A DNA stretch of 56,589 nucleotides, the filler included, from Jimgerdemannia flammicorona (taxonomy: Eukaryota), in the NCBI GenBank assembly GCA_003990765.1. It is 3 parts of 3 records of this genome, joined end to end, with 100 filler letters (N's around TTAATTAATTAA, not from the genome) between each part and the next. Parts side by side here need not be neighbours in the genome. Positions count along the whole stretch, not along the records: positions 18,900 to 37,695 come from RBNJ01002114.1; 2 more parts are not named here. One strand, 5' to 3'. Shown in pieces: positions 3,283 through 36,885 of this stretch. Both the position numbers and the translations under genes were made by a program. The notes under the pieces were generated by a model, which saw only the letters and a list, made by a program, of their open reading frames with translations, had not been told where the DNA came from and searched no databases. Position 1 is the first letter of the stretch; every line of letters starts with the position of its first letter.

Positions 3283-4377
3283 TATCTCCATAAACCCCAC
3301 TACCCCTGCTAAAGAAAACTCCAAAGGAAAGAAGAAGGCACTGTACCTCCAATGGGACTTGATAATGGAAAACTACCTGATCTCTCAGCTGCTTGATGTA
3401 GTTCAATGTGGAAAAAGAACTGAAAATAGTTTCAAGCCAGAGATGTGGGTCTCGATAGCTAAACAATGCTCAGAACACTTTGACCAGCTGATCAATGTCA
3501 GCCAGATCAAGTCAAAGTTTCACCAGTCATTTAAGTCAGACTATGACACATTCAACCACCTGAAGAACAAGAGTGAGTTTGGTTGGAATGAGGAGGTGCA
3601 AACAGTGGAGGCTTCTTCAAAAGTGTGGGATGATTACTTAAAGATACAAATACTCATTATTCAGGCTTTCTGCAAGCTGGATATCATCTTTTCTAATTTG
3701 TTCTATGTTTACAGGAGTACCCCCAGGCAAAAAAGTTCCATAATAGGGCCTTTTCTCAGTACAATGACTTTAATGAGCTGTTTGGGACAATAGGGGCAAC
3801 TAGCTGTCATGCCACTACATAAGGCCAGGCTGTACAGCATCATACTCAGACCAAGATACCCTCTGAAGATGAAGATGAGTACCAATTATCAATCCTCTCT
3901 CAAACCTCTTCCAATACTAACAAGCATTAAATTTGAAATGAGATGCTCTCTGAAGATGAAGATGAGCTTCAAGATATCTCTCAAAACATCTTCAACACCA
4001 ACAAACCTTTCTCTACCACCACTTTCTCTACCACCACTTCCTCCCACAATATTACTCTCTCCCACAATACCACTTCCAAAAAACATAAGTGAACCAACCC
4101 TGGCTTGGCAATTGTCTCTGCCATCAACCAGCTGACTGATATTGCAAAGGCACTGCTACTGACAAGCCCCAGTATTCATCGAGATGCCATCCTTGCTCTC
4201 CATAAAGAGTACAGTAATATATTAAACAGTATAGACATAGCCAAAGCTTATAGTGTTATGAAGTCTGAAGTAAATGCGATGATATTCTGTGCAATACCTA
4301 CTGAGGAGGTGTGTGATATTTGGTTGAAAGAGGAGATTAACAATATAAATAAAGACACTTCGGGACAATTACAATAG
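3283..4377 (+). pseudogene. Harbinger Myb/SANT-like DNA-binding protein
   Basis: LQWDLIMENYLISQLL...FKPEMWVSIA...QIKSKF...FGWNEEVQTVEAS..VWDDYLK. Intron at about 3644-3714 with a mutated donor. Start approximate. Confidence 0.87.
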
Positions 4378-9463: not shown

Positions 9464-10958
9464 TATAAGTGCACAACCTCCAAACCACCAAAATTGTATG
9501 TTATCCTCAGAACTAATTTGGAAACTATATGCAAGACTACAAAATAAGTTACTGAAGAGATCACCTGGTTACACAAAATATGCCAGCAAGCACAAGAACC
9601 TACTGCCAAGATATAAGAATACTAGAAGAAGTACTACAACCATAAGACCAACCCTAAACCTCTATAACTAGTTTGGTATATTATACTATTATAAAAGGAA
9701 ACTGAAAGTACTAAACTCAAACTGAGATAAGAAGAATCTCTCTTATCTACCAAAGGTTCATGAACTGCACTTATCAACTCAAGACTAAGATATACCACAA
9801 CTATACAAGACCTCATTACTTAGCAGAAATAAAATGCATTTGAACAACTTCATTCACTCTATCTATGTCACCTCTATTGAAGAATAATAGATACTTCATC
9901 TAAACTCAAGAAAGTTGACATTGTTGAAACCAATCTCAAGTCCATCTATGTGACAGATATTACTACTAGAAATTACCTCAGATTATAGAAAATATCATTT
10001 CTGAGAGATTTGAACCCCCAGCTACAACATTGGGAGCCCTTGTCCTAAATAAGGATGGCCAGTCCTCGCAAATGTGCCAGCAGTCCAAAAAAAAAGAGAA
10101 CCAAGACCTGTTATTCATATACAACTACTGCCACCAAGAATAGCCTTAATCTTACAAGAGATAGAGATAATGACACCTTTGAAACTGATGATGTCAGAAG
10201 TCAGAAAACTACTCAGACTTTGCCAGAGATAATATTATCAATAGTGATATTATCAAAGACTAATCAGACAGCATCTAAATCTATAAATAGCTTAGCAGTC
10301 ATAGTATAGTTAGATTAGCCTTATACAACGTAACTGTGAACTCACTCAGCAGTCAGGCAATCTCTTGACATATCAGATCACACTTGTACTATATAACTAT
10401 ATTCTGACTCAGCAAGGTACTAAAGTGCTATATCTATATTCAGCATAGTCCAGATAGCCCCTCACTAGTATAAATACCCCCTCTCTCAGACCTCAGAATC
10501 TTAGACTTAAACAGACTTGAACACTCCTGAACACTTCTCCACAATATCCCTTCATACAAACTACTTCTAGTATAGCAATATCATGAATAGCAAATAAACC
10601 TATTTAATAACCTACAAACTACTCTTAAGTAAATCTGTTCTCCATTAGATCCCACTCCTAACCCCATTATGAAATTTCCTAATTGGATATTGTCTGCAGT
10701 GATACACCAATTCAACTAAGCTGGTCTTAGTTTCTTAAACTTTCTGAAATACAGAAAATCCTGAACATTCAGAATTAGTCCAAATAAGGACTTTGATTGA
10801 GATATTAACCCAATCTTGAAATCAATATACATAGAGGACATACTCTATACAAAATTAATTTTGATCTTATGAAAACAGTCTTTCAGAATATCCAGAACTT
10901 CTAAAAAAAACCCTTCCAGAACTACATAATGGTTACTCTAACAAGTAATCCTCTTACA
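9464..10958 (+). repeat. 5' LTR of element A (1.5-kb variant of the family-B LTR)
   Basis: TATAAGTGCACAACC (decayed TGTAAG) ... CCTCTTACA. Shares the first ~80 bp and last ~730 bp with the LTR at 19140-21199. Followed by PBS TGGTAACAG. Confidence 0.9.
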
Positions 10959-13353
10959 ACTTGGTAACAGTGGTTTACAATCCAATTCTGCTTCAAGATG
11001 CTTCCTCACCCTACTACAAACACCTCTGAGAATTCCTATAAGTTGGTATAAAGCCCAATCTCTGAACTGGAATTTATCCTGAACCATCTGACAATCTGGA
11101 GAAAATTAAACCTGATGTATAAGGTCCACACCTATAACAAGTGGGACAAACTTTATTTGAAGAAAGAAATACTCTAGTTAAATTAGCAGATAGGTGAAAT
11201 CCTATATACTGAACTCCTTGTACTACACCCAACAAGTCAAAATAAAGAAGGTCTTATAGAAGCCTTCTTTACTCTTCTCAATAAGAGTTTTGTCAGCTCT
11301 ACAAATCTGAGCAACCTAGGACAACTAGCAGCAGTCTTTCTAGCCTTAGTTCCTCACAAAGTCCAAGCCTCTATAGCTAAGTGGCTCAACTCTACTAACT
11401 TTCACTATACCAGGACCAAGACTGCATTATACTACTGATTCCAAAATAGCAAGGCCCACTATATTCTTAAGAAAGAAGTAAGAGAAACTCTTTGTCAATA
11501 ACCTGACCCTAAACAAGAAGCAGGTCTAGCTATAGCTCTACCTGAACCTGAAACTAATACTAAACCAGAACTTGACTTTGAATTAAGTCTATCTGAAATC
11601 AGATATACAACTGACTCTGTCTACTTCAATGCTGAGCAAACCCAACTACATGGAGACCAAGCTGAAGAGGAGGAGGAGTATCTCAGTGAATTCAATCCCA
11701 GATATACTACTGAAGAAGACATACCTCCATCAGGACAGAATACACCTACACAGCAACAAACAGCTATTTATTGAGCCCTTACTCCAGACCCACAACTACT
11801 ACTCCAGCAACTTACACAGACTCAAAGAACACTCTCACATTCTGTATTAGTACCTCAAGTAGTATCAGTAACATCACTATCAGTAGTCCAACTGCCTCCA
11901 GTAAACAATATAGCAAACCAACAGATTCTAGACCTTATAGTCCAGATAGCAATAATGGTAGCAACCATTACTGCCTTAACTAAACAGATCTGATCTACCA
12001 AAAATATGAGCCAACCCACCTTCAATGGTACTATACAAGAAGTCCAAAGCTTTATTAGTATAGTTGACACCAACTTTGAAGCCAATCAATGGACCAATGA
12101 GTGAGTTGCTGAATACCTTCTGACAAACAATCAAGACCACACTCTGGAACAACTCTTTGCTACTACTACAGTCTATGTCTGTTGAGTTGTTACATTCTTC
12201 CAAGGACCTGCTGAAGAATAGTGATGAATCCTTCCTAAAAAACCCCTCACATGGGACACCAAACCTACAGTTATTGCCCAGAATGCAGCAAATAATACCC
12301 TAGGATATGGAGCCCATCCTGCAGCCCCTGGACTCAAACAACTCATAATTGCTCAATACCACAGTGAAACCATGATTGCCAAATCTCAAGTTAATCTCTG
12401 CAATCTCAAATTTGATGTATATGGCAAGGAGGAATTTGAAACCTTCTGTACAAAACTCAAGTCACTTCTGAACACTGTTGGCCTAGGATATATTGCCAAT
12501 GATGAAGCATGAAATAGTACAAGAGCAGACCATCTATTCGATGCACTATCTGAATAACTTACAAGAAAAATCCAAGAACAAGGATGCCTGGTTGGTTGTA
12601 ATTACCAACAATGGTGCCTGGTAAGAATCAAGACTATGGTTAAGTGAATCCTAATAGCTGAACCAATTCTGCTCTAAAGACAATTCAATAATAAGGAAAA
12701 GACTTGGACCAAGAAAGAAGAACTCAAGCATGAAGCATCCCAAGCTCCCTCTATATCCACCTCATAGATACCCAGAAATCATAAATTCACCCAGCTGAGT
12801 ACCTTTAAGAAACTCACCAAAGGAGAAAAAAATGAACTTTGAAGAAGCAGAGCATACTGCTATTGCCAAAAGATAGGATACATAGCCAGTGTCTGCCTTA
12901 ACTAAAAACTCTGAACAGCAATATGAGTAACTGTTACTACTCTGTACTACCTCAATAACCTGACTACCAGAATACTGGACTTTATTAAGTTAAGGCAAAC
13001 TACCAAGGCCCCAACTAAAGGAAGTCAAAAGGCAGCTAGATATGACCTGTATATAGTGGAAGAAGCTATAGTTTCCAACCAAGAAGTCAAGCAAGTTTAC
13101 ACAGAAATCAGTATCCAAATCCCTAAAGGACATGTTGGAAGAATATGCTATTACAGTAGCCTAATATTGAAAGGACTCTCAGTAGAAGGAGGAGTCATTG
13201 ACAAAGATTATATAGGGGAAATTATTATCCTCATCTGAAACTACAGTTGGATACTCTTCAAGATCTCCATTGATTTTTACATTGCCCAAATCCTATTTGA
13301 GAAAATTGAGTCAACCCTGATAGTCAAGGAAGTCCCTGAACTACTACCCACTA
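10959..13353 (+). pseudogene. Element A internal region: gag with zinc knuckle plus dUTPase, truncated
   Basis: Colinear with 21200-23593. dUTPase motifs (AARYDL, SSLILKGLSVEGGVIDKDYIGEI). Homology stops abruptly at 13353. Confidence 0.9.
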
Positions 13354-19139: not shown

Positions 19140-21199
19140 TGTAAGTGCACAACCTCCAAGCCACCGAAATTACATGTCACCCTCTGAACAAGCCACTGAA
19201 ATCACATGCGACCTCTGAACAAATCTGGAAATCACCTGCTTGATCACGAAGCTGAGTCAAACCAAAGTCACAGTGCACAAAGCTGAGTCAATACAAAGTT
19301 ACAGAACACAAGGTTTATACAAACGGAATCTTACTAATCAGGACCAAATACATATATACCAAGTACCGAGATGCATCAAATCAGAGAACCAACACAAACA
19401 ACAACCATAACTTCTAAATATACAAACATGACCACTGAGATCTACAACCATATCCGCACTGACATTTGGAATACCATTATCAACTGAGCTACACCCCCTC
19501 TGCCCCTCATAAATATCCATAGCCTAGCACCCCTCTACTTTGTGGAAGCCCGATGGAACACTCTGAACATACTTAGCGAGGCCCACCAAATCGGACAAAT
19601 CTCAAGCTACTACCAGATCGGCTGCCTCCTGGAAGATATAGTCGAACACCACTATGACACAGACATTACCCAGATGTCTCAACACCAGAAGCTCATCGCC
19701 CATAAACATCGAGAACTCTTCTACGAGTATAGTACCATTATTTTCTGCCTCCAAGTTACTACTAGCAAAATGGTTGCTACTCTGTCCTATGGCCAAATCG
19801 ATGACATGATACAAGAACTCAACCACAAGTACCTCAAGTATGTCAAAACCACAGACAGAACCTTCCCACACCCCAATGATCAAATCCTACAAATGCCCCA
19901 AGTTGGATATATCATAAAGGACATCTATGATATAATCCACTTCGATGAAGATGAAGCAGAAGACAATGATCCCTCTGATGCCGACATGACCTCTAGCCAA
20001 GGATCACTGCCAACCCTGATCACCCCGCTAACCTTGCTGATGAACTTACAACAGTTCATATATAACTACATATGAGACTTATTGGGACAATGACCACTGG
20101 CACGAATACCAACCCGCATTCACCCCTGATTACTTCAACTACAATGAAGAAACCAGAGAACACAACCTGTACCTTCAGACAACCCTCGAGATTGAACCAA
20201 CCACTTCACCACCCAAGTACGAGCGACAGGAACCACAGCCACCAGCATACTATAACCCTGCCATAACCTATAGAAGGTATGCAGACAGCGAATCCAATGA
20301 AAGCAAAGACAATATACTCCTCCTTCGCCCACTAATACCTTATCCAGCATACAAGACAGACGATGCTATCCTATAGGATGGAGACAAAGTTCCAATGCAC
20401 TATTATCTCAGTGAATAAGGAGAAGTAATCCATGAACCATTATTCCTAGACAACTACTTCATCAGAGATGATGCAATTGATGGTGATGTCATCGAAGACT
20501 ACCCAGACAGCGCCTAAACCTATAAATAGCCTAGCAGTCATAGTATAGTTAGATTAGCCTTATACAATATGACTGTGAACTGACTCAGCAGTCAGACAAT
20601 CTCTTAACATGTCAGATCACACTTGTCCTACGTAACTGTATTCTGACTCAGCAAAGCACTTAGTGCTACATCCATATTTAGCATAGTCCAGATAGCCCCT
20701 CACTAGTATAAATACCCCCTCCCCCAGACCTCAGAATCTCAGACTCAAATACACAAGAACATTCCTGAATACTTCTCCACAATATCCCTTCATACAAATA
20801 CTCCTAGTATAGCAATATCATGAATAGCAAATAAACCTATTCCATAACCCACAAACCACTCTTAAGTAAATCTGCTCCCACTCCTTATTAGGTCCCACTC
20901 CTAACCCTGTCACGAAATTTCCTAATTGGGTACTGTCTGCAGCAATACACCAATTCAACTAAGCTGGTCTTAGTTTCTTAAACTTCCTGAAATACGGAAA
21001 ATCCTGAACATCCAGAACTAGTCTGAAAAAGGATTTTGGTTGAGACATCAATCCAATCTTGAAATCAATAAGCATAGAGGACATACTCTATACGAAATTG
21101 ATCTTGACCATAAGAAAATGGTCTTCCAGAATATCCTGAACCTCCAGAAAACTCTTTCAGAACTACATAAAGGTTGCCCTAAAAAGCAACCCTCTTACA
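19140..21199 (+). repeat. 5' LTR of element B (2060 bp)
   Basis: TGTAAG...CTTACA termini. Matches 27709-27843 plus 34189-36122. TATAAATA box at about 20707. Confidence 0.95.
19428..20517 (+). pseudogene. Uncharacterised ORF inside LTR U3 (5' copy)
   Basis: MTTEIYNHIRTDIW...EARWNTLNILSEAHQIGQISSYYQIG...DDAIDGDVIEDYPDSA*. One 2-bp insertion near 20060 and a few transition-type stops. Confidence 0.75.
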
Positions 21200-21202
21200 A
21201 CT

Positions 21203-21215
21203 TGGTAGCAGCAGT
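21203..21215 (+). promoter_or_regulatory. Primer-binding site, probably tRNA-iMet
   Basis: TGGTAGCAG, 3 nt after the LTR, is complementary to the CUGCUACCA 3' end found in many eukaryotic initiator tRNAs. Confidence 0.75.
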
Positions 21216-21239
21216 TTACAATCCAATTCTGCTTTAAGA

Positions 21240-23154
21240 CGCTTTCTCACCCTGCTATAAACCCCTCTACAAATTCCTACAAGTTGGTATAAAGCCCAAT
21301 CTCTGAACTGAAATTTATCCGAACTGTCTGACAATCTGGAGAGAATTGAACCTGACATATAAGGACAATTTGACCTCCACATCTGCAACAAGTGGGACAA
21401 ACTTCATTCAAAGAAAGAAGTCCTCAGGTTAAACCAGCAAATAGGTGAAACCCTATTCACCAAACTCCTTGTACTATACCCAGCAAGTCAAGATGAAGAA
21501 GGTCTTATTGAAGCCTTCTTTACTCTTCTCAATAAGAGTTTTGTCAGCTCCACAAATCCAAGTGACCTAGGACAACCAGCAGCAGTCTTTCTAGCCTTAG
21601 TTCCTCACAAAGCCCAAGCCTCTGTAGCCAAGTGGCTCAACTCTACCGACTTTCACCACACCAGGACCAAGACTGCCTTATACTACCGATTCCAGAATAG
21701 CAAGGCCCGCCATATCCTTAAGGAAGAAGCAAGAGAAACCCTTCATCAACTACCTGACCCCGAACCTGAAGCAGGCCCTGCTACAGCCCTACCTGAATCT
21801 GAAACCAATACCAAACCTGAACTTGACTTTGAATTAAGTCTGTCTGAAATCAGATATACAACTGATTCTGTCTACTTTAACGCCAAGCAAACCCAATTAT
21901 ACAGGGACCAAACTGAAGAAGAGGAGGAGTATCTCAGTGAATTCAATCCCAGATATACCACTGAAGGAGAAGTACCTCCATCAGGACAGAATACACCTAT
22001 ACAGCAACAAACAGTTACCTATCAAGCCCTCACTCCAGATCCACAACTACTACTCCAGCAACTTACACAGACTCAAAAAACCCCATCACACTCTGCACCA
22101 GTACCTCAAGTAGTACCAGTAACACCACTACCAGCCTCCAGTAAACAACATGGCAAACCAACAGATTCTAGACCTCACAGCCCAGGTAGTCATAATGATA
22201 GCAACTATTACTATCTTAGCTGAACAGACCCGACCTACTAAAAATCTGAGTCTACCTACCTTCAATGGTACTGCATAAGAAGTCCAAAGCTTCATTAGTG
22301 TAGTTGACACCAACTTCGAAGCCAATTAATGGACTAATGAGCGAGTTGCTGACTGCGTTCTGATAAACAATCAAGACCACACCCTGGAACAACTCTTTGC
22401 TACCACTACAGCCTATATTTGCTGAGTTGTTACATTCTTCCGAGGACCTGCCAAAGAATGGTGGCGAACCCTTCCTGAAAAACCCCTTACATGGGATACC
22501 CGACCTGCAGTAGTTGCCCAGAATGCAGCAAACAATGCCCCAGGATATGGAGCCCATCCTGCAGCCCCTGGACTCAAACAACTCATGATTGCCCAATACC
22601 ACAGTAAAACCATGATTGCTGAATCTCAAGTAAAACTCCGCAACCTCAAATTTGATGTATATGACAAAGAAGAATTCAAAACCTTCTATACAAAACTCGA
22701 GTCACTCCTGAACACTGTTGGCCTAGGATACATCGCCAATGATGAAGCACGAAATGGTACAAGAGCAGACCATTTATTCGATGCACTGCCTGAATGGCTT
22801 ACTAGAAAAATCCAAGAACAAGGCTGCCCAGTTGGTTGTGACCACCAACAATGGTGCCTGGCGAGAATCAAGACCATGGTCAAGCGAATCCTAATAGCTG
22901 GACCCATTCTGCCCCAAAGGCAATTTAACAACAAGGAAAAGACTTGGACCAGGAAAGAAGAACCCAAGCATGAAGCATCCCGAGCTCCCTCCACATCTAC
23001 CTCTTGGACACCCAGAAATTCTAAACCCACCCAGCCCAGTACCTTCAAGAAACTTACTAAAGATGAAAGGAATGAACTTCGAAGAAGCAGAGCATGCTTC
23101 TATTGCCGAAAGACAGGATATATGGCCAGTGCCTACCCTAACCGAAAACCCTGA
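21240..23154 (+). pseudogene. gag of element B
   Basis: Capsid-like region and a degenerate CCHC knuckle (CFYCRKTGYMASAYP). Start approximate. Confidence 0.8.
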
Positions 23155-23199
23155 ACAGCAATATGAGCAACTGTTACCGCTCTTCACCACCTCAACAAC

Positions 23200-23625
23200 C
23201 TGACCACCAGAACACTGGACTTTATTAAGTTAAGACAAACTGCTAAGGCTCCAACCAAAGGAAGTCAAAAAGCTGCTGGATATGACCTGTATGCAGCTGA
23301 AGAAGCTACAGTTTCCAACTGAGAAGTCAAACAAGTCTATACAGGAATCAGTATCCAAATCCCTGAAGGACATGTCAGAAGAATATACTGTCGCAGCAGC
23401 CTAGCATTGAAAGGACTCTCAGTAGAAAGAGGAGTCATTGATGAGGATTACACAGGCGAAATTATTGTCCTCATTCAAAACCACAGTTGGACACCCTTCA
23501 AGATCCCTATTGGCTTCTGTATTGTACAGATCCTATTCGAAAAAATCGAGTCAACCCTGACAGTCAAGGAAGTCCCTGAACTACTGCCTACCATCTGAGG
23601 ATCCAAAGGATTTGGCTCATCAAAC
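23200..23625 (+). pseudogene. dUTPase domain of element B, between gag and protease
   Basis: AAGYDLYA, CRSSLALKGL, GVIDEDYTGEI, IVQILF, *GSKGFGSS (trimeric dUTPase motifs 1-5). In frame with gag through CGA>TGA-type stops. Confidence 0.93.
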
Positions 23626-27707: not shown

Positions 27708-27899
27708 TTGTAAGTACACAATCTCCAAGCCACCGAAATTACATATCACCCTCTGAACAAGCCACTAAAATTACACGTGACCTCCGAACAAATCTGGAAA
27801 TCACCTGCTTGATCATGAAGCTGAGTCAAACCAAAGTTACAGCTAGTGCTCCGAACAAATGGAGTTGATCCGGATGAGATTTGATTCAGATTCGTCATG

Positions 27900-28066
27900 T
27901 GATGGATTCGAATCAACTCAGATTGGTCTCGTGATCTGATCCGGATTGATCCAGATTGATCCAGATTGATCCATCTGGATTGATCCATCCAGATTGATCC
28001 ATCTGGATGATCCATCCAGATGATCCATCCGGATTGACTCATCCGGATTGATCCATTCGGATTGAA
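27900..28066. repeat. hAT left subterminal repeats (GATTGATCC(A/G)G-like)
   Basis: Direct short repeats next to the TIR. Confidence 0.85.
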
Positions 28067-28266
28067 ATCTTTGGTGACGTCACTCTTTCTTTTGTTTATT
28101 TCGCTCTTGTTTTTTTTTCTGCCATACTTTGGTGATATCACCCTTTCCTTTGTTCTCTCTCTTTTCTTTGTTCTTTTTCTTTGTTCTTTCCTGCCGCATC
28201 ATGAGCAAATAAAACAGCAGCCCTTAATTCATATATTAGTCCAGTCTACTCATTTTTCACCCTACA

Positions 28267-30325
28267 ATGATTGTCAAAAGAGGGAGTATTCAAGGTGGAA
28301 ACGCACTCTCTGCTGACAATGTTAGATTCTTTCTCATATGGACAGCACACAAGCTGCTCATCGAGAGCCAAAGGGGTGATGGCAGTGGCAGTGGCAATGG
28401 CGATGGTGGGGATGAGAGAGAATTCCAGCAACAACTCATGGTGGCCCTTTCAACCTTAGAATTCACAGACCTCACAGCTATGTATGCAGCAGCCTTTTTG
28501 GAGCAGCCGATAGTAGATGTAGGTTGCTCACTCAGCTGCCACTTATTTACTTATATTTATTTATTTAAACTTCTCCAGCATGATCCAATTCATCTCATGC
28601 TTTTCTTAGGGTCTACAGCTCTACGGCGAGATCTGCCAACTTTATTCGCAACATCTGGTCAAGATGAAGAAAGGCTGGTGGACATTGCAGGGCATGCCTT
28701 TGGTGGCTGAGCTGTTGAGTCAATGCATCACGTGGTGGAGGTCTCAAAAGGAACAGAAGCAAGCCTTCATGAGCAATTCTTGTGCAACTTGTCGGCATGC
28801 AACTTGTCAGCATGCAACTCATCGGCATATAGCTCACTCACTCATGCTCTTTTTCTGAAATACCCATCTCCGTGTTTTATTTAATTTCATTTTTACATGG
28901 TCTCCCCCTAAAAAACACCCACACCCACACACAACCTGTATGCAATCCATCCGCATGCAACCCACCCACCCGCATGCAACCCGCCCACCCGCATGTAACC
29001 CGCCCACACACAACCCACCCACAACCCGCCTGCATGCAACCTGCCTGCATGCAACCTGTCCACATACTTATCTCGGTCCCTCAGATCAGGGCTCAGTTCT
29101 ATTGGAAAGGAGAGTTCAAAGTTACCTGAGTTCAACCACGTCTGGTGTCTGATCAAATAGAGAAATTTGAGGGCAAGATATTCAGCATGAGCAGTACCAG
29201 CATCATTATCAAGGCTTGGGGGTCTACATTCGAATCAGAGCCAATTGTACTCAACCAAGGGATCCATTGGCCAGCAGGAGTAACCAACGACAAAGAGAAC
29301 TATATCTTTATTAACGAACATAGAGAGGTGGTTGCAATGGTGGTAAAGAACCTCTACAGTGACGAGCTTCGCCACCATATCAATGAGATTTGCGAGAATT
29401 GCGTCAAATACCAGGTAGCAGGGAAGAGGGGGTGAAAAAAGCAAGGAGGGGGGGTTTGGACAGGAATTGGGTATACTGCAATACTGGCGAAGGGTGGGTT
29501 CCGAAATCCCCCACACTCGTCTCCCTTTTTTTTTAACCCCTTCCCAGATAAATCACACTCTTCACTGACATACTCTTTTTGATACAATTCTAGAGATGCA
29601 CAAGATTCTGTACCCCTACCGGAACTTTAGAAGTACTGTCAAAGAGCAAACTATGCGCAAGCACAACACGGTCTATGCGGTGATGGCGGCTATGATCTGG
29701 GGTTCTTTGAGCAGATTGGTAGAGCATACGGCAGGCCAGCTTGGTGGTGATCTCGGCACAGCTGTACATACGTTCTTGGCACAATTTAACATGCCGTATG
29801 AGGTGAGGAGCTCCGCTTTTTTGGGGTACTGCAGCCTGGGGGGTTTCTGCAGCCTGGGGGGTTTCTGCTCCCTGAACGCAAAAAGGACTGACCAGTTGCC
29901 ATCCGTTTTAGCAGGTTTCCAAGCCGGGGCTCCTGGGGCTGGACTAAGGGCAGGCATCCACCAGCACAGCCTGGCAGTATGAGGTCCTGGGCCAAGGGTT
30001 CACCTAACCATATGCTCGCATCACATCAGGATATGTTGGGCGCAACCTTTCTCTGCCCATACACACAGATAACAATGTCACCCTGGTAATGTTTTATGTC
30101 CTGGAAAGGAAGGGCCCAACCTGGGAGGATAGCGGCAGAGTTTGGTACAACCTCACCTATGGTTTCGGAGTCCCGTTTGTGGCCAACACAGCTGTCCTAT
30201 TCCAACCACATGACCACCATGGTACTGTCGCCTTCGAGGAGAGCTCGGACACAACAGTCATCGCACTCACAATGGATGACAGGCTCATCAAGGCCTGGGA
30301 CCGGCGGGTGGAGCAGTTTTTGTGA
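28267..30325 (+). pseudogene. Spliced cargo gene, putative TET/JBP-like Fe(II) dioxygenase
   Basis: Exons 29085-29493, 29594-29802 and 29912-30325 join in frame via GT-AG introns. They give ...KRG(R)KKQGGGVWTGIGY...SGYVGRNLSLPIHTDNN...GRVWYNLTYGFGVPFVANTAVLFQPHDHHGT...VIALTMDDRL. HxD at 30062-30070, distal His at 30218. The link to upstream exons (28267 to about 28760) is inferred. Confidence 0.7.
28930..29060. repeat. Intronic minisatellite (GCATGCAACCCGCCC-like)
   Basis: Degenerate direct repeats upstream of the acceptor at 29084; related CATGCAACT units at about 28780-28825. Confidence 0.7.
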
Positions 30326-30610
30326 GGGTTAGGCAATCTTTCATAAGGGTTAGGCAGCCATTTTGTACAGGTTGGGCAGTCTTATGTGGGGGGGTGGGGC
30401 CGGGCGCCTCTTATGTAGCACTAGCTTAGCCATTATATAGGGCCCTATCGGCCCCTCGGCCCTGCTCTATAGTGCTGCTGGTGCAGCACTACAGCGCAGG
30501 GCTGGGGTGCCCATGGGACCCGAACCGGCAACTTCGACCACCGGAAATGCCCTCTGACTGCCAGAAGCACCCTCTGACCACCAGAAGCACCCTCCACCCT
30601 GGACTCCTTA

Positions 30611-30925
30611 GTGGCTTGGGGCTGCCCCTATACCACTAGTGGAGGGCCGCAAATTTTGCGTGCTCCCTCTGCCTGCCCCGCCTGCCAACTGACCCCGCCC
30701 ACTGACCCAGGCACTGACAGCTTGGGGCTGCCCCTTGCTGCTGGTGGAGGGCTGCAAATTTTGTGCACTCCCTCTGCCTCCCCCCCCAACCTGGACACTT
30801 GTGGCTTGGGGCTGCCCCTTGCTGCTGACGGAGGGCCGCAAATTTTGTGCGCTCCCTCCGCTGACCCGCCTACTGACCCGCCCACCAACCCAGGCACTGG
30901 CAGCTTGGGGCTGCCCCTTGCACGC
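30611..30925. repeat. GC-rich tandem repeat between the convergent cargo and transposase genes
   Basis: GCTTGGGGCTGCCCCT at 30614, 30720, 30804 and 30903; the first three are followed by GGAGGGC(C/T)GCAAATTTTG. Confidence 0.9.
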
Positions 30926-31072
30926 CCCCTCTGCTGCCGCCGCCACCAACTCTGCTCCACTTTGGCTGCAAACTCTGGGCCGAGTCCTCAGGTTTTTTTT
31001 TCCTTTTTATTAATTTGAAAGGTATTAAATATTCCACAAGGCCAACCAACTTATCCACAGACCCGCCAAATT

Positions 31073-33615
31073 TTAGCGGCCCGAGCCCCACCAAGACTTC
31101 AGACACATACATGCCCAGATTGTCTCAGCATTCAGCACATACCTCTTTGGGGCAATGAGGTCCACCCCACCTGAGAACACCTGCTCGATGAGAGCGCTGG
31201 AGACAGGAATCGCCAGGTAGTCCCAAGCCATACCACACAGGCTGGGGAAGTCTGTTTGACACAGCTGCATGCCTCAGTGGATAGAGTGGTGGTTAGATTG
31301 GTGGGTTAAATTGGCCCAACGCCTGCCTGACAACCCACCTTCCACCAGTTGAGCACCTCCATGCCCTCCAGCAGGACCACATGGTCGCTGGCAAGGTAAA
31401 TGGTAAGTTCGTCTATTGATGGCAGCTCTTCCACTGATGGCTCCCTCTTCCTCTTTCTGCTAAAGTAAATGTGAGACAGGAGAAATCCCTTGGTATATTC
31501 GTCTGGACTTTGGCCAGAACCTTGCGGCGGTGCATAGTTTTTCCGGTACACTTCAATTACGGCCTGCTTGGTTCTCTCAATGAAGTACTACTCCCAGCCC
31601 TGATCTTTATGGTATTGTAGCTTTAAGCGTGGGTCCAGCACTGTTTGAAGAAAGGAGAGTGAGTTTTTGTGGGGTTTCCTCTGTTTTGGAAGGGGCAACG
31701 GCCACACGCCAACATCGACATATCTGTACTGATTGAGTATATGGTAGTATCTGTTTGGGTGTAGTATTTTCTAAGCTTGCTTAGAGCAACAACCATGGTG
31801 TCTCTCTGATCCGGGCTTAACTGTAAATCACTGCAACCCTCCAGCCTGTCCTCGAGCTTGTCCTCTAGCTGGTCAATCAGAAGGTTGTATACCAGTATCG
31901 CAGAGCTTATTGTTGAGGTCATTTATTTGACTATATCCTTTATACAATCGTCAAAACACTGGCAGTTATATGTGGTGAGATATTGCACTGTGCGGAGGCA
32001 GACAAAATGAGTATAGAGCCAGGGCAACCACCACTTACTTCCAAAACTCTGACAATATTCCTAAGTATGTCTCACTCGCTTTCACCTAGAGCTTCGGCCC
32101 GTATTTCCTTATCAGCAGCCATCGTTGAATCTATTAGCTTTTTTTTTTTTTTAAAAATAAATCTTCCATCATCTAAAATAGTTGCTTCAGCTGACCAAAG
32201 AAAAAAAGGATACATACCACAGCAAACTCCAGTGTGCGCTGGATCATTGCAAATGTTGAGTTCCAATGTATACAGACGTCCAATATAAGCTCTTTCAGGG
32301 CTAAACTGATTGCTCTATACTGCGCAGCGAATTTGTCTCGTCATTGTGGGGATGATCGGACCGACACAACCAGTTTGCGCAGCTTGGAAATTATACTCAG
32401 GGCCCCTCCTCTCTTGGATGTTTTGTCTATGTGCATAAGATAGTCCTGAATAGCGAGGTTCAGTACGTGGGCCTGGCATTGCACATGGCAGCTTTCTGTA
32501 CTGAAGGCCATGTTTTCCTGTTTGAGGCTGGCTGCTAAATCTTGGAAAAATATTGAGTTATTTGTGGCATTGTCCATCGTAATGGCCAAAATCTGTACTT
32601 GAAATATTTGGTTGACAAATTTATATGAAAATAAGTAACCAATAAAATCTGGTTTGGTTTAGGACCTCTCTCAAAATGCCGACCTGACGGCAAGCCCCCC
32701 TTTTTTACCTTGGTGGTGATCCCAAGCTCCCGGATACAACTAATAAAAGCATCTATGATATTGTCTCCAGAATGAGGGCCAGCAAGTTTGACGAAGTCAA
32801 GGGTGAGAGATTTAAGCTGCCAATCGAGGTCAATCTAATGACCGGTAATGCCCAGAAATGAAATTGCATTGGGGGATGTCCATGTGTCGATCGTAAACGA
32901 AATTTTGCCTGCCAAATTCTGCTTATTGAATGTAAGGTTAAATTGGTGAGCTCTTTTGTATAATTCAGCTTGCAAAGGTCATGGTGCTGCCCTTATTTTA
33001 CCTGAAGTGTCTGGCAGAGATTGTCATACTCCTTCCTATAGGCCTCCAGGACATCTTTGCAAATAGTATCGGCACTTGGCAAATATAAATCATGCTTGAG
33101 GAGGCCAAAGATACTATGCAATTAATCACTCTCGATGGTTGTGAATGGCTGGTCTGTGCACACAATCCAGTGAATGAGCCGATTTCGAAATTCTGCCAAA
33201 GAGTATGGCTAAAATTTTTGATTAAATGGCGTTATTGGTACAGAAATGGTCAGGCAATCAGATAAACGTACCCACCATAGCTTAGATGTCGATTTTATTT
33301 GTCTCTGTGTTCTTTTTGATTTTGTCAGAGTACTTGTCTTTTATGTGTCGATTTATGTTTGAAGTCGTACCCCCAAGCATTTTGAACTTCTGGCTGGTAC
33401 AGTTCATGGGGGTGGATGAAACAATATCATGTATGTGTCAAAACAATATCATGTGTGTGTCAAAACAAAGTGTCAATAGGTGTGTCTTAATTTTTTACCT
33501 GCAATAATTACAAACAACATCATCTCCTATCTTAGTACAATGCTGCCAGATTTCAGAGCAAGGATTGCGTGGAAGGTGTGGAACTATCAGGGATGTTTGA
33601 CTTGAAGCATCATTG
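31073..33615 (-). pseudogene. hAT transposase with BED zinc finger, multi-intron, with stops
   Basis: SEIWQHC...VVCNYC...GTTSNINRHIK (BED); DQPFTTIES; SFTIDTWTS..AISFLGITGH; HSGDNI; ITMDNATNN; CQAHVLNLAIQ; LDVCIHWNST; VLNWWK; FPSLCGMAWDYLAIPVSSALIEQVFS (dimerisation). Start approximate. Confidence 0.95.
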
Positions 33616-33744
33616 GTACTGTGAACTGTTGAAGACTGATCTGTCGATATGTGTGTTTGCGTATTTGCGTGTGCATATGTATGTGTGTGTGTGTATGCAT
33701 GTGTGTGTGTTATGTTATAGATGCATCTAGCATATGAGTCATGT

Positions 33745-34110
33745 GGAGGATTTGGATTGGAGGATTTGGTTGAAGGATTCGGATGAGGATTCGGATTGAA
33801 GGATTTGAATTGGAGGATTTGAATTAGAGGATTCGAATTGGAGGATTCGAATTGAGTGATTCAGATTGAGTGATTCAGATTGAGTGATTCGGATTGAGTG
33901 ATTCAGATTGAGTGGTTTGGATTGGAGTGGTTCGGATGGGTGATTCAGATGGGTGATTCGGATGGGGCAATTCAGATGAGGCGATTCAGATTGAGTGATT
34001 TGGATTGAGTGATTCGGATTGGGGTGGTTCGGATGGGTGATTCGGATGGGGTGATTCAGATGGGGTGATTCAGATTAAATCTGAGTTGATTCGGATGGCT
34101 TCAGATTTGA
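33745..34110. repeat. hAT right subterminal repeats (GATTC(G/A)GATTGAGT-like)
   Basis: Many degenerate 13-15-bp direct repeats near the TIR, preceded by a (TG)n microsatellite at about 33650-33710. Confidence 0.88.
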
Positions 34111-34341
34111 GATTTGAATCAAACCGTCATGTGATGAATCAAATCCGGATTTGATTTGAATTGACTCATTCGGAGCACTAGTCACAGCATACAAAGCTGA
34201 GTCAATATGAAGTCACAGAACACAAGGTTTACATAAATGAAATCTTACTAATCAGGACCAAATACATATATACCAAGTACCGAGACATGTCAAATCAGAG
34301 AACCAACACAAACAACAACCACAACTTCTAAACACACAAAC

Positions 34342-35439
34342 ATGACCACTGAGATCTACAACTGTATCCGTGCTGACATTTGGAATGCTATTGTCAACCG
34401 AGCCACACCCCTTCTGCCCCTCATGAATATCCATAGCCTAGCACCCCTCTACTTTGTGGAAGCCTGATGGAATGCTCTGAACATGCTTAGCGAGGCCCAC
34501 CGAATCGGACAAATCTCAAGCTACTACCAGATTGGCCATCTCCTGGAAGACATGGTCGAACACTACCATGATACAGACATTACCCAGATGTCTCAACACC
34601 AGAAGCTCATCGCCCACAAACATTGAGAACTCTTCTATGAGTATAGTACCATTATTCCCTGCCTCCAAGTTACTACTAGTGAAATGATTGCTATCCTGTC
34701 CTATGGCCAAATCGATGACATGATATAAGAACTCAACCACAAGTACCTCGAGTACATCGAAACTACAGACAGAACCTTCCCACACCCCAATGATCAAATC
34801 CTGCAAATGCCCCAAGTTGGATATGACATGAAGGACATCTACGATATAATCCACTTCAATGAAGATAAAGCAGAAGACAATGATCCCTCTGATGCCAACA
34901 TGACCTCTAGCCAAGGATCACTGCCAACCCTGATCACCCCGTCAACCTTGCCGATAAACTTACAACAGTTCATAACTGCATACAAGACTTATTGGGACAA
35001 TGACCACTGGCATGAATACTAATCTGCATTCACCCCCAATTACTTCAACTACAAAGAAGAAACCAGAGAACACAACCTGTACCTTCAGACAACCCTCGAG
35101 ATTGAACCAACCACTTCACCACCCGAGTACGAGTGATAGGAACCACAGCCGCCAGCATACTATAACCCTGCAACTCACAGTGCCATAACCTATAGAAGGT
35201 ATGCAGACAGCGAATCCAATGAAAGCGAAGACAATATACCCATCCTTTGCCCACCAACATCTTATCCAGCATACAAGACAGACGATGCTATCCTATAGGA
35301 TGGAGACGAAGTTCCAATGTACTATTACCTCAGTGAACAAGGAGAAGTAATCCGCGAACTATTATTCCTAAACAACTACTTCATCAGAGATGATGCAATC
35401 AATGATGATGTCATCGAAGACTACCCAGACAGTGCCTAA
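34342..35439 (+). pseudogene. Uncharacterised 365-codon ORF inside LTR U3 (3' copy)
   Basis: ATG 34342 to TAA 35439 is 1098 nt with no net frameshift. Most internal stops are sense codons in the 5' LTR copy. Confidence 0.78.
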
Positions 35440-36122
35440 ACCCATAAATAGCCTAGCAGTCATAGTATAGTTAGATTAGCCTTGTACGACGTAACTGTAA
35501 ACTGATTCAGTAGTCAGACAATCTCTTGACATATCAGATCACACTTGTCCTACGTAACTGCATTCCGACTCAGCAAAGCACTTAGTGCTACATCCATATT
35601 TAGCATAGTCCAGATAGCCCCTCACTAGTATAAATACCCCCTCCCCCAGACCTCAGAATCTCAGACTCGAATATACAAGAACATTCCTGAATACTTCCCT
35701 ACAATATCCCTTCATACAAATACTTCTAGTATAGCAATATCATGAATAGCAAATAAAACCTATTCCATAACCCACAAATCACTCTTAAGTAAATCTGCTC
35801 CCACTCCTTGTTAGGTCCCACTCCTAACCCTGTCATGAAATTTCCTAATTGGGTACTGTCTGCAGCAATACACCAATTCAACTAAGCTGGTCTTAGTTTT
35901 TTGAACTTCCTAAAATACAGAAAATCCTGAATATCCAGAACTAGTCCGAAAAAGAACTTTGGTTGAGATGTCAACCCAATCTTGAAATCAATAAGCGTAG
36001 AGGATGTACTCTATACGAAATTGATCTTGACCATAAGAAAACAGTCTTCCAGAATATCCTGAACCTCCAGAAAACCCTTCCAGAACTATATAAAGGTTGC
36101 CCTAAAAAGTAACCCTCTTACA

Positions 36123-36885
36123 CATGAACCATTATTCCTAGACGACTACTTTATCAGAGATGATGCAATTGATGGTGATATCATTGAGGACTACCCAGAC
36201 AGCACCTATACCCATAATTAGCCTAGCAGTCATAATATAGTTAGATTAGCCTTGTACGATGTGACTGTGAACTGACTTAGTAGTCAGATAATCTCTTGAT
36301 ATATCAGATCACACTTGTACTATGTGACTGCATTCTGACTCAGCAAGACACTTAGTACTACATCCATATCTAGCATAGTCCAGATAGCCCCTCACTAGTA
36401 TAAATACCCCCTCCCCCAGACCTCAGAATCTCAGACTTGAACACATAAGAATATTCCTGAATACTTCCCCCACAATATCCCTTTACATAACCACTCCTAG
36501 TATAGCAATATCATGAATAGCAAATAAACCTATTTAATAACCCACAAACCACTCTTAAGTAAATCTGCTCCCTGTTAGGTCCCACTCCTAACCCTGTCAC
36601 GAAATTTCCTAATTGGGTATTGTCTGCAGCAATACACCAATTCAACTAAGCTGGTCTTAGTTTCTTGAACTTCCTGAAATATGGAAATCCTGAATATCCA
36701 GAACTAGTCCGAAAAAGGACTTTGGTTGAGACATCAATCTGATCTAGAAATCAATAAGCATAGAGGACGTACTCCATATGAAATTGATCTTGACCATAAG
36801 AAAACGGTCTTCCAGAATATCCAGAACTTCCAGAAAACCCTTCCAGAACTACGTAACGGTTACCCTAAAAAGTAACCCTCTTATA
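36123..36885 (+). repeat. 3' portion of a further family-B LTR
   Basis: Matches 20431-21199; ends CTCTTATA (decayed TTACA); no PBS follows. Confidence 0.92.

Follow-up and report, generated by a model that had tools for sequence, protein, structure and literature searches.

A decayed canonical hAT transposon of Jimgerdemannia flammicorona with a spliced passenger gene that probably encodes a very divergent TET/JBP-like dioxygenase

RESULTS

A bounded hAT element within a retroelement copy

A 56.6-kb stretch of DNA from Jimgerdemannia flammicorona (hereafter the window, i.e. the whole stretch analysed; all coordinates are window positions) contains a hAT transposon of 6,337 bp (27844–34180) which lies in a copy of a long terminal repeat (LTR) retroelement. 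The element holds two convergent genes: one encodes a decayed hAT transposase and the other, which we call the passenger, is a spliced gene interrupted by stops. The best explanation of the locus as a whole, to which we assign a probability of roughly 0.6, is that it belongs to a dead canonical hAT family carrying a TET/JBP-like anti-silencing passenger. The features that define the element are as follows (the exons of the passenger gene are given in the next section).

27836–27843, no strand: left copy of the 8-bp target-site duplication, GTTACAGC (flank comparison; contig joints)
27844–27855, plus strand: left terminal inverted repeat, TAGTGCTCCGAA (exact-match scan; two contigs of run X3 start matching at 27844)
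27937–28065, no strand: left subterminal short repeats, 10- and 14-bp units of ATCCGGATTGATCC type (repeat scan)
30440–30960, no strand: G+C-rich repeats between the convergent genes, differing in length among copies of the family (contig joints within 30594–30946)
31073–33620, minus strand: decayed hAT transposase, many stop-to-stop pieces in three frames (Pfam and translations)
33744–34076, no strand: right subterminal array in which a 14-bp unit of GATTCGGAT type recurs about 24 times (repeat scan)
34169–34180, minus strand: right terminal inverted repeat (exact-match scan)
34181–34188, no strand: right copy of the target-site duplication, GTCACAGC (flank comparison)
19267–19274, no strand: empty paralogous site, GTCACAGT, present once, and without an insertion, in another nearby copy of the retroelement sequence (14.9 kb upstream)

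Exactly two occurrences of the 12-mer TAGTGCTCCGAA are found in the window, in inverted orientation, and the two repeats are perfect; 0.06 matches would be expected by chance, and none of 100 shuffles attained two. The sequences flanking the repeats, GTTACAGC and GTCACAGC, are identical at 7 of 8 positions and one transition apart. Logan contigs from four public sequencing runs (X1–X4, from two studies), which match the stretch with small word shares (0.06–0.17), were compared with it. Three of these contigs bridge the element, joining 27834 to 34180 (one from X1 and one from X2) or 27838 to 34184 (one from X2). Each omits 6,345 bases, that is, the 6,337 of the element plus 8, as expected of an 8-bp duplication. 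Two X3 contigs match from 27844 onward and are preceded by a flank unrelated to the window, so that they represent another insertion of the same family; the point at which their match begins sets the left end of the element at the T of TAGTG. The presence of a C before the left repeat and of a G after the right one formally permits a duplication of 6 or 7 bp. The X3 boundary favours 8 bp as the best reading, as does the fit of the ends to YARNG, the usual motif of hAT termini. It would appear, then, that a hAT element with TAGTG...CACTA termini inserted into the retroelement copy and duplicated 8 bp of it.

Terminal repeats, flanks, the GTCACAGT site and the bridging contigs all agree with the bounded element described in the first-pass annotation of this DNA. 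That annotation had placed the empty site in a sister LTR; the site itself stands, and its setting is better described as a neighbouring copy of the same retroelement sequence, since the repeated block includes an integrase C-terminus. For the same reason the copies may form a tandem or recombined array instead of a single simple element.

What remains of the transposase is recognizable by its C-terminal hAT dimerisation domain, for which a match to PF05699 (Dimer_Tnp_hAT) was found at 31073–31273 on the minus strand (E = 8e-12; 45.2 bits, for a cut-off of 21.4). The other 10 of the 11 stop-to-stop pieces gave no meaningful Pfam match, and no Pfam model scored for the DDE core or the BED finger. 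Translation reveals MDNATNN..CQAHVLNL (32341–32658), SFTIDTWTS...GITGH*IDLDW (32838–32960, with an in-frame stop inside) and, near the N-terminus, a BED-like CxxC...H region (33282–33560) in which the string CxxC...NRHIKDKY can be read. We take SFTIDTWTS, MDNATNN..CQAHVLNL and CxxC...H to be hallmarks of hAT transposases. Relative to other copies among the contigs, the transposase of the window copy has single-base insertions or deletions at 31650, 33213 and 33440. The element belongs to the canonical hAT superfamily: it shares with Ac/Tam3-like elements an 8-bp duplication, short terminal repeats that fit YARNG, subterminal repeats, a putative BED-like finger and the dimerisation domain, and differs from them in having a second, unrelated protein-coding gene. 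The left subterminal repeats are probable transposase-binding sites.

Several further observations concern the surroundings and the non-coding part of the element. The LTR-retroelement copies lie in series, with 85–92% identity between 10241–13345 and 20480–23585, between 19266–21199 and 34180–36122, and between 35356–36120 and 36126–36883. The copy hit by the hAT has an internal tandem duplication of 0.77 kb. At the G+C-rich repeats (30440–30960), contig joints from three runs omit or duplicate 85–176 bases.

A spliced gene faces the transposase

The passenger gene lies on the plus strand (about 28694–30325). The exons, predicted from alignment with the relatives presented in the next section, are:

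28694–28780, plus strand: putative first coding exon, beginning MPLVAELLSQCITWW, 3' boundary approximate (weak tblastn block; ATG at 28694)
29130–29493, plus strand: exon 2, 5' boundary approximate, with the strand motif NYIFIN..EVVAMV and GGGVWTGIGYT (tblastn, 29271–29495 matching residues 92–167 of P0005)
29594–29802, plus strand: exon 3, between a phase-1 and a phase-0 intron (tblastn; splice-site check)
29912–30325, plus strand: exon 4, with R-x6-HTD (30062–30070), the distal His in HGT (30218–30220) and the stop TGA (30323–30325) (tblastn; 83% identity to P0001, E = 1.6e-51)

The introns at 29494–29593 (phase 1) and 29803–29911 (phase 0) are both of GT..AG type and lie exactly where the first-pass annotation, which had announced a second, spliced gene facing the transposase, had put them. 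When P0005, an intact relative, was compared with the window by tblastn, three collinear blocks were obtained (29271–29495, 29596–29802 and 29924–30304; joint E = 2e-24). A fourth, weak block (28709–28771, residues 7–27 of P0005) is collinear with the others, albeit with E = 4.2 when taken by itself. The gene therefore probably starts further upstream than had been annotated. An open reading frame (ORF) further upstream (28267–28518, MIVKRGSIQGG...EQPIVD) is followed by a GT, and an AG at 28608–28609 is in phase with the frame of the first matched exon; this ORF, which has no Pfam match, may be an additional 5' exon.

Three in-frame stops interrupt the coding sequence: a TGA in exon 2 (29433–29435) and two TAA in exon 4 (29945–29947 and 30005–30007). 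Two of them are likely to have arisen by C-to-T changes, as suggested by the residues found in relatives: an Arg of the metagenome locus L001 corresponds to the TGA, and a Gln of P0001 to the second TAA. Both genes of the window copy have been inactivated, mostly through transitions, and this copy is a pseudogene without a function of its own.

A small protein family overlooked by standard profiles

An exhaustive HMMER search of 1.84 billion proteins with the 105-residue piece of the last exon as query gave 7 matches at E <= 1e-3, among which 4 are true relatives:

P0001: E = 1.6e-51, 83% identity
P0002: E = 5.9e-33
P0004: E = 4.4e-10
P0005: E = 1.9e-9, intact, 374 residues

The remaining three (P0003, P0006 and P0007) were dropped, as they cover no more than residues 69–102 of the query and do so in 3 to 9 stretches per protein, a repeat artefact of the same sort as the WD40 matches obtained from the PDB (see below). 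Further protein searches based on a word index added P0008 and no other protein, while a pattern scan yielded the metagenome loci L001, whose frame is open, and L002, which has stops; in both, the two introns occupy the same positions as in the window gene. The distinct relatives found are six in number, four proteins and the two metagenome loci. L001, whose DNA is A+T-rich (34% G+C), is from another organism. Judging from these alignments, the passenger is a member of a small protein family that lacks annotation and escapes standard profiles.

These data bear on the possibility that the passenger is not a gene and that its frames are open by chance in transposon DNA. Such an explanation could appeal to the three stops and to the need for splicing. 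It is refuted by relatives with E-values of 1.6e-51 and 5.9e-33, by the alignment of an intact 374-residue relative across three exons and by the conservation of intron positions in L001 and L002, and the probability that we leave it is negligible. The four true relatives, the collinear P0005 alignment and the shared introns lead us to conclude from these comparisons that the passenger is a real, spliced gene, dead in the window copy.

Some details of the metagenome sequences are worth recording. P0004 and the last exon of L001 (L001:1537–1953) are almost identical, but P0004 has HVN where L001 has HVD; P0004 probably derives from a decayed copy. L002 is 99% identical to L001 at the DNA level and carries in-frame stops. 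Downstream of its intact passenger relative (regions 2320–2945 and 3480–3640), L001 has two ORFs without a Pfam family (93 and 94 residues), and beyond them short repeats of the GATTTGA type, in which the contig ends, and a 28-nt stretch matching the right end of the window element with 86% identity (E = 0.003, in a small search). This hints that the distant passenger relative, too, lies within a related element.

A candidate dioxygenase active site

Conservation was assessed on a six-row alignment of the family, whose members are 31–47% identical to P0005. Both His of an HxD...H arrangement (H283 and H335 in P0005) are invariant (6 of 6 rows) and 52 residues apart, a distance already noted in the first-pass annotation for the window protein (H of HTD at 30062–30064, H of HGT at 30218–30220). 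Five of the 6 rows have the Asp; P0004 does not, although the near-identical exon of L001 does. The motif of the family is H[VT]D. An Arg is found 7 residues ahead of the first His in 5 of 6 rows. By residue numbering, Arg224 of NgTET1 likewise lies shortly ahead of the HxD His. From this pattern of conservation, HxD...H is a probable active site of the iron-dioxygenase type.

Two kinds of evidence connect the family with the TET/JBP branch in particular. The first comes from feature neighbours in the ESM Atlas. For P0005, the top neighbour is a cluster from Basidiomycota (0.96; 209 of 256 features shared) in which 15% of the members have PF20515, and rank 11 is a cluster with PF12851 in 16% of its members; for P0008 (recognition 2506), PF20515 and PF12851 are the only named families. 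These neighbours are to be read as leads, since about one shuffled protein in 100 attains 0.95 and the shares of cluster members with a named family are small.

The second is a likeness to the PE-type enzymes of fungal transposons described by Kojima 2025 (Biology 14:1741, PMC12730594). The window protein has E[VI]VAMV.[KR]N in common with the enzyme of a Tuber borchii Helitron, P0005 has NYI..D..T.EIV in common with a Morchella enzyme, and ..SAG, LPR[LM]D, R-x(3-6)-H-x-[DE] and GG.F[FY]...YG.x[IV]...HG[ST] are collinear with the PE-type. From the N-terminal strand onward, the order of the short motifs is the same throughout the domain. At the position after the distal His where Arg is usual, the PE sequences examined have Gln and the window family likewise lacks Arg; both groups wholly or largely escape sequence profiles, the PE-type being, according to that survey, barely detectable by HHpred (E = 1.4 to CMD1). 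According to the same survey, AlphaFold-database models of the PE-type resemble CMD1, NgTET and CcTET at E < 1e-5. By eye, PE-type enzymes appear to be the nearest published relatives of the passenger. Taken together, the Atlas neighbours and the motif match lead us to favour, with some reserve, the view that the passenger encodes a very divergent TET/JBP-like Fe(II) dioxygenase.

Results that count against a TET/JBP-like passenger

A number of results weigh against the reading of the locus proposed above. No match to PF12851 (Tet_JBP) or PF20515 (2OG-FeII_Oxy_6) was obtained with any of 7 pieces of the window protein at E <= 1 (noise at E > 0.2 for one piece), any of 4 relatives (P0005, P0001, P0002 and P0004) at E <= 10 or any of 6 pieces of L001 at E <= 1 (one noise match), so that the Tet_JBP profile comparison called for in the first-pass annotation came out negative. 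A search of the PDB with the family profile gave 0 matches at E <= 10, and PHROGs gave noise (E > 0.03) and no relevant PHROG. AlphaFold2 models, of full-length P0005 (6 rows) and of residues 86–374 (11 rows), reached mean pLDDT (predicted local distance difference test) values of 37.8 and 36.3, respectively, and are too low in confidence to show a fold. No Arg or Lys stands at positions +10 to +15, counted from the distal His, in any of the 6 members. The likeness to the PE-type was judged by eye against the sequences printed in Table S1 of PMC12730594, and HxE, given there as the hallmark of the PE-type, is replaced by HxD in the window family. Furthermore, no transposase is seen over the 1.7 kb that follow the gene in L001, and the linkage of passenger and transposase in other copies of the family is pieced together from overlapping short contigs of different runs, with no single record spanning both.

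In the same scans, no other oxygenase family of Pfam was found for any piece or relative, and PDB matches obtained with single sequences proved to be WD40 repeat artefacts (query residues 74–100).

These results leave some room for a passenger that is a conserved transposon accessory protein of another kind, either a different cupin or 2-oxoglutarate (2-OG) enzyme acting on something other than DNA or a non-catalytic protein whose HxD...H does not bind iron. The want of a match in Pfam, the PDB and PHROGs, the vacant position of the C5-carboxylate Arg in 6 of 6 members (see below) and AlphaFold2 models too low in confidence to be used are all in its favour. We nevertheless regard it as rather unlikely: the His pair never varies and the Asp is retained in 5 of 6 rows among members as diverged as these, the Atlas neighbours of two members include no named family other than PF20515 and PF12851, and the collinear motifs are shared with enzymes reported to be structurally similar to CMD1, NgTET and CcTET (PMC12730594). 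As regards the TET/JBP identity asserted in the first-pass annotation, its anatomical part, with the HxD...H pair, is upheld; the assignment itself is plausible and lacks a profile match.

Comparison with published carriers and enzymes

TET/JBP genes have been described on 11 lineages of fungal DNA transposons (PMC12730594). The first-pass annotation had held that no hAT carrier was known; this claim to novelty fails, since the same survey reports twenty TET-positive hAT7 families from six Puccinia species, with 7-bp duplications. In a literature search for TET/JBP dioxygenases on fungal hAT elements, PMC12730594 was the only report found. The hAT7 families resemble the window element in being hAT-superfamily transposons with a gene of (in our case, putative) TET/JBP type beside the transposase, in a fungal-type genome whose repeats decay by C-to-T change. 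They differ in the length of the duplication (7 bp versus 8 bp) and in their termini (the consensus sequences of seven P. graminis hAT7 families start with CAACGG or CAGCGA, the window element with TAGTGC). Their enzymes, too, are of another type: the seven examined are PU-type, with GG.MW..GWRK, H.D and later [TS]R.G.S, whereas the window protein has neither the Arg of GWRK nor that of R.G.S. Because duplication length, termini and enzyme type all differ, the window element is not one of the published hAT7 families.

The carriers listed for the PE-type in PMC12730594 are Helitron, IS3EU, Zisupton, EnSpm and Plavaka elements (Pezizomycetes and some Agaricales); hAT, the superfamily of the window element, is not among them. 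What is new here is a canonical hAT with an 8-bp duplication and a PE-like, HxD-type enzyme family that profiles do not detect, while the kind of element was already known.

Among structurally solved TET homologues, CMD1, NgTET1, HsTET2 and CcTET have the HxD...H arrangement in common with the window family, and CMD1 has the same spacing of its His (His345 to His397, 52 residues; PMC7854593). In HsTET2 and NgTET1, Arg1896 and Arg289, respectively, bind the C5-carboxylate of 2-OG and lie 10–15 residues past the distal His, and CMD1, which uses vitamin C, functionally lacks this Arg contact (PMC7854593). CMD1 does have an alignable Arg410, whereas positions +10 to +15 of the window family are devoid of basic residues. 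No sequence similarity between the window family and CMD1, NgTET1, HsTET2 or CcTET is detected by HMMER.

Copies of the family and the decay of cytosines

In X1, X2 and X3, contigs with 85–99% identity reach every one of the 30 bins into which the stretch was divided; in X4 they reach 27. This coverage extends to the passenger region in all four runs, from which it follows that the family has many copies. The latter differ almost wholly by transitions (in X1, 581 transitions versus 20 transversions).

It is in this light that a one-off capture, i.e. a fragment of a host gene taken up by a hAT lineage without a role in the life cycle of the element, has to be considered. Elements of the hAT type do capture host sequence, the window copy is a pseudogene and L001 has the gene without a visible transposase, all of which such a capture would accommodate. 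Set against this are the coverage of the passenger region at 85–99% identity in all four runs, with none of the joints listed omitting it, the retention of a full exon–intron structure and, in L001, both the GATTTGA-type repeats and the 28-nt stretch that is 86% identical to the element's right end. We hold a one-off capture to be very improbable. The term mobile unit used in the first-pass annotation is apt for the family and inapt for the window copy, which is dead.

The window shows a methylation-linked regime of C-to-T decay, and the cytosine loss that had been noted before is borne out: the observed/expected ratio of CpG is 0.20 for the whole window, and its repeat copies differ by 1,095 transitions versus 127 transversions. 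Inside the hAT the CpG ratio is higher (0.47 versus 0.20), a difference that may reflect nothing more than the younger age of the element. Among 762 transitions classified by context, 406 are in NCA and 112 in NCG, a distribution which does not separate mutation resembling repeat-induced point mutation from the decay that follows CpG loss. Such a regime fits the role proposed for the passenger.

DISCUSSION

The element described here is a canonical hAT whose second gene, real and spliced, has relatives in other sequences. We infer the fold of the passenger, its substrate and an anti-silencing role. In active copies of the family, the passenger would act on methylated bases of the element's own DNA, most likely 5-methylcytosine, by oxidising them or changing them in some other way, and this alteration would counter both methylation-based silencing and C-to-T decay.

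The lack of Arg or Lys at +10 to +15 weakens strict membership of the family in TET/JBP and leaves room for an unusual co-substrate chemistry. A more specific proposal, which we consider quite unlikely, is that the family constitutes a fourth type of transposon-borne TET/JBP-like enzyme (PE-like, with HxD, on a canonical hAT) that resembles CMD1 in dispensing with the C5-carboxylate contact and that uses another co-substrate or yields a product other than 5-hydroxymethylcytosine.

DNA transposons that carry TET/JBP genes are believed to remove or rewrite the methylation by which they are silenced. To such carriers, the window element would add a canonical hAT lineage with 8-bp duplications, together with a protein family that profiles have missed. 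If the interpretation of the locus as a hAT family with a TET/JBP-like anti-silencing passenger is true, the capture of this anti-silencing passenger has happened more frequently than the published survey indicates and has involved more divergent forms, and the missing co-substrate Arg would make this family a candidate for unusual chemistry.

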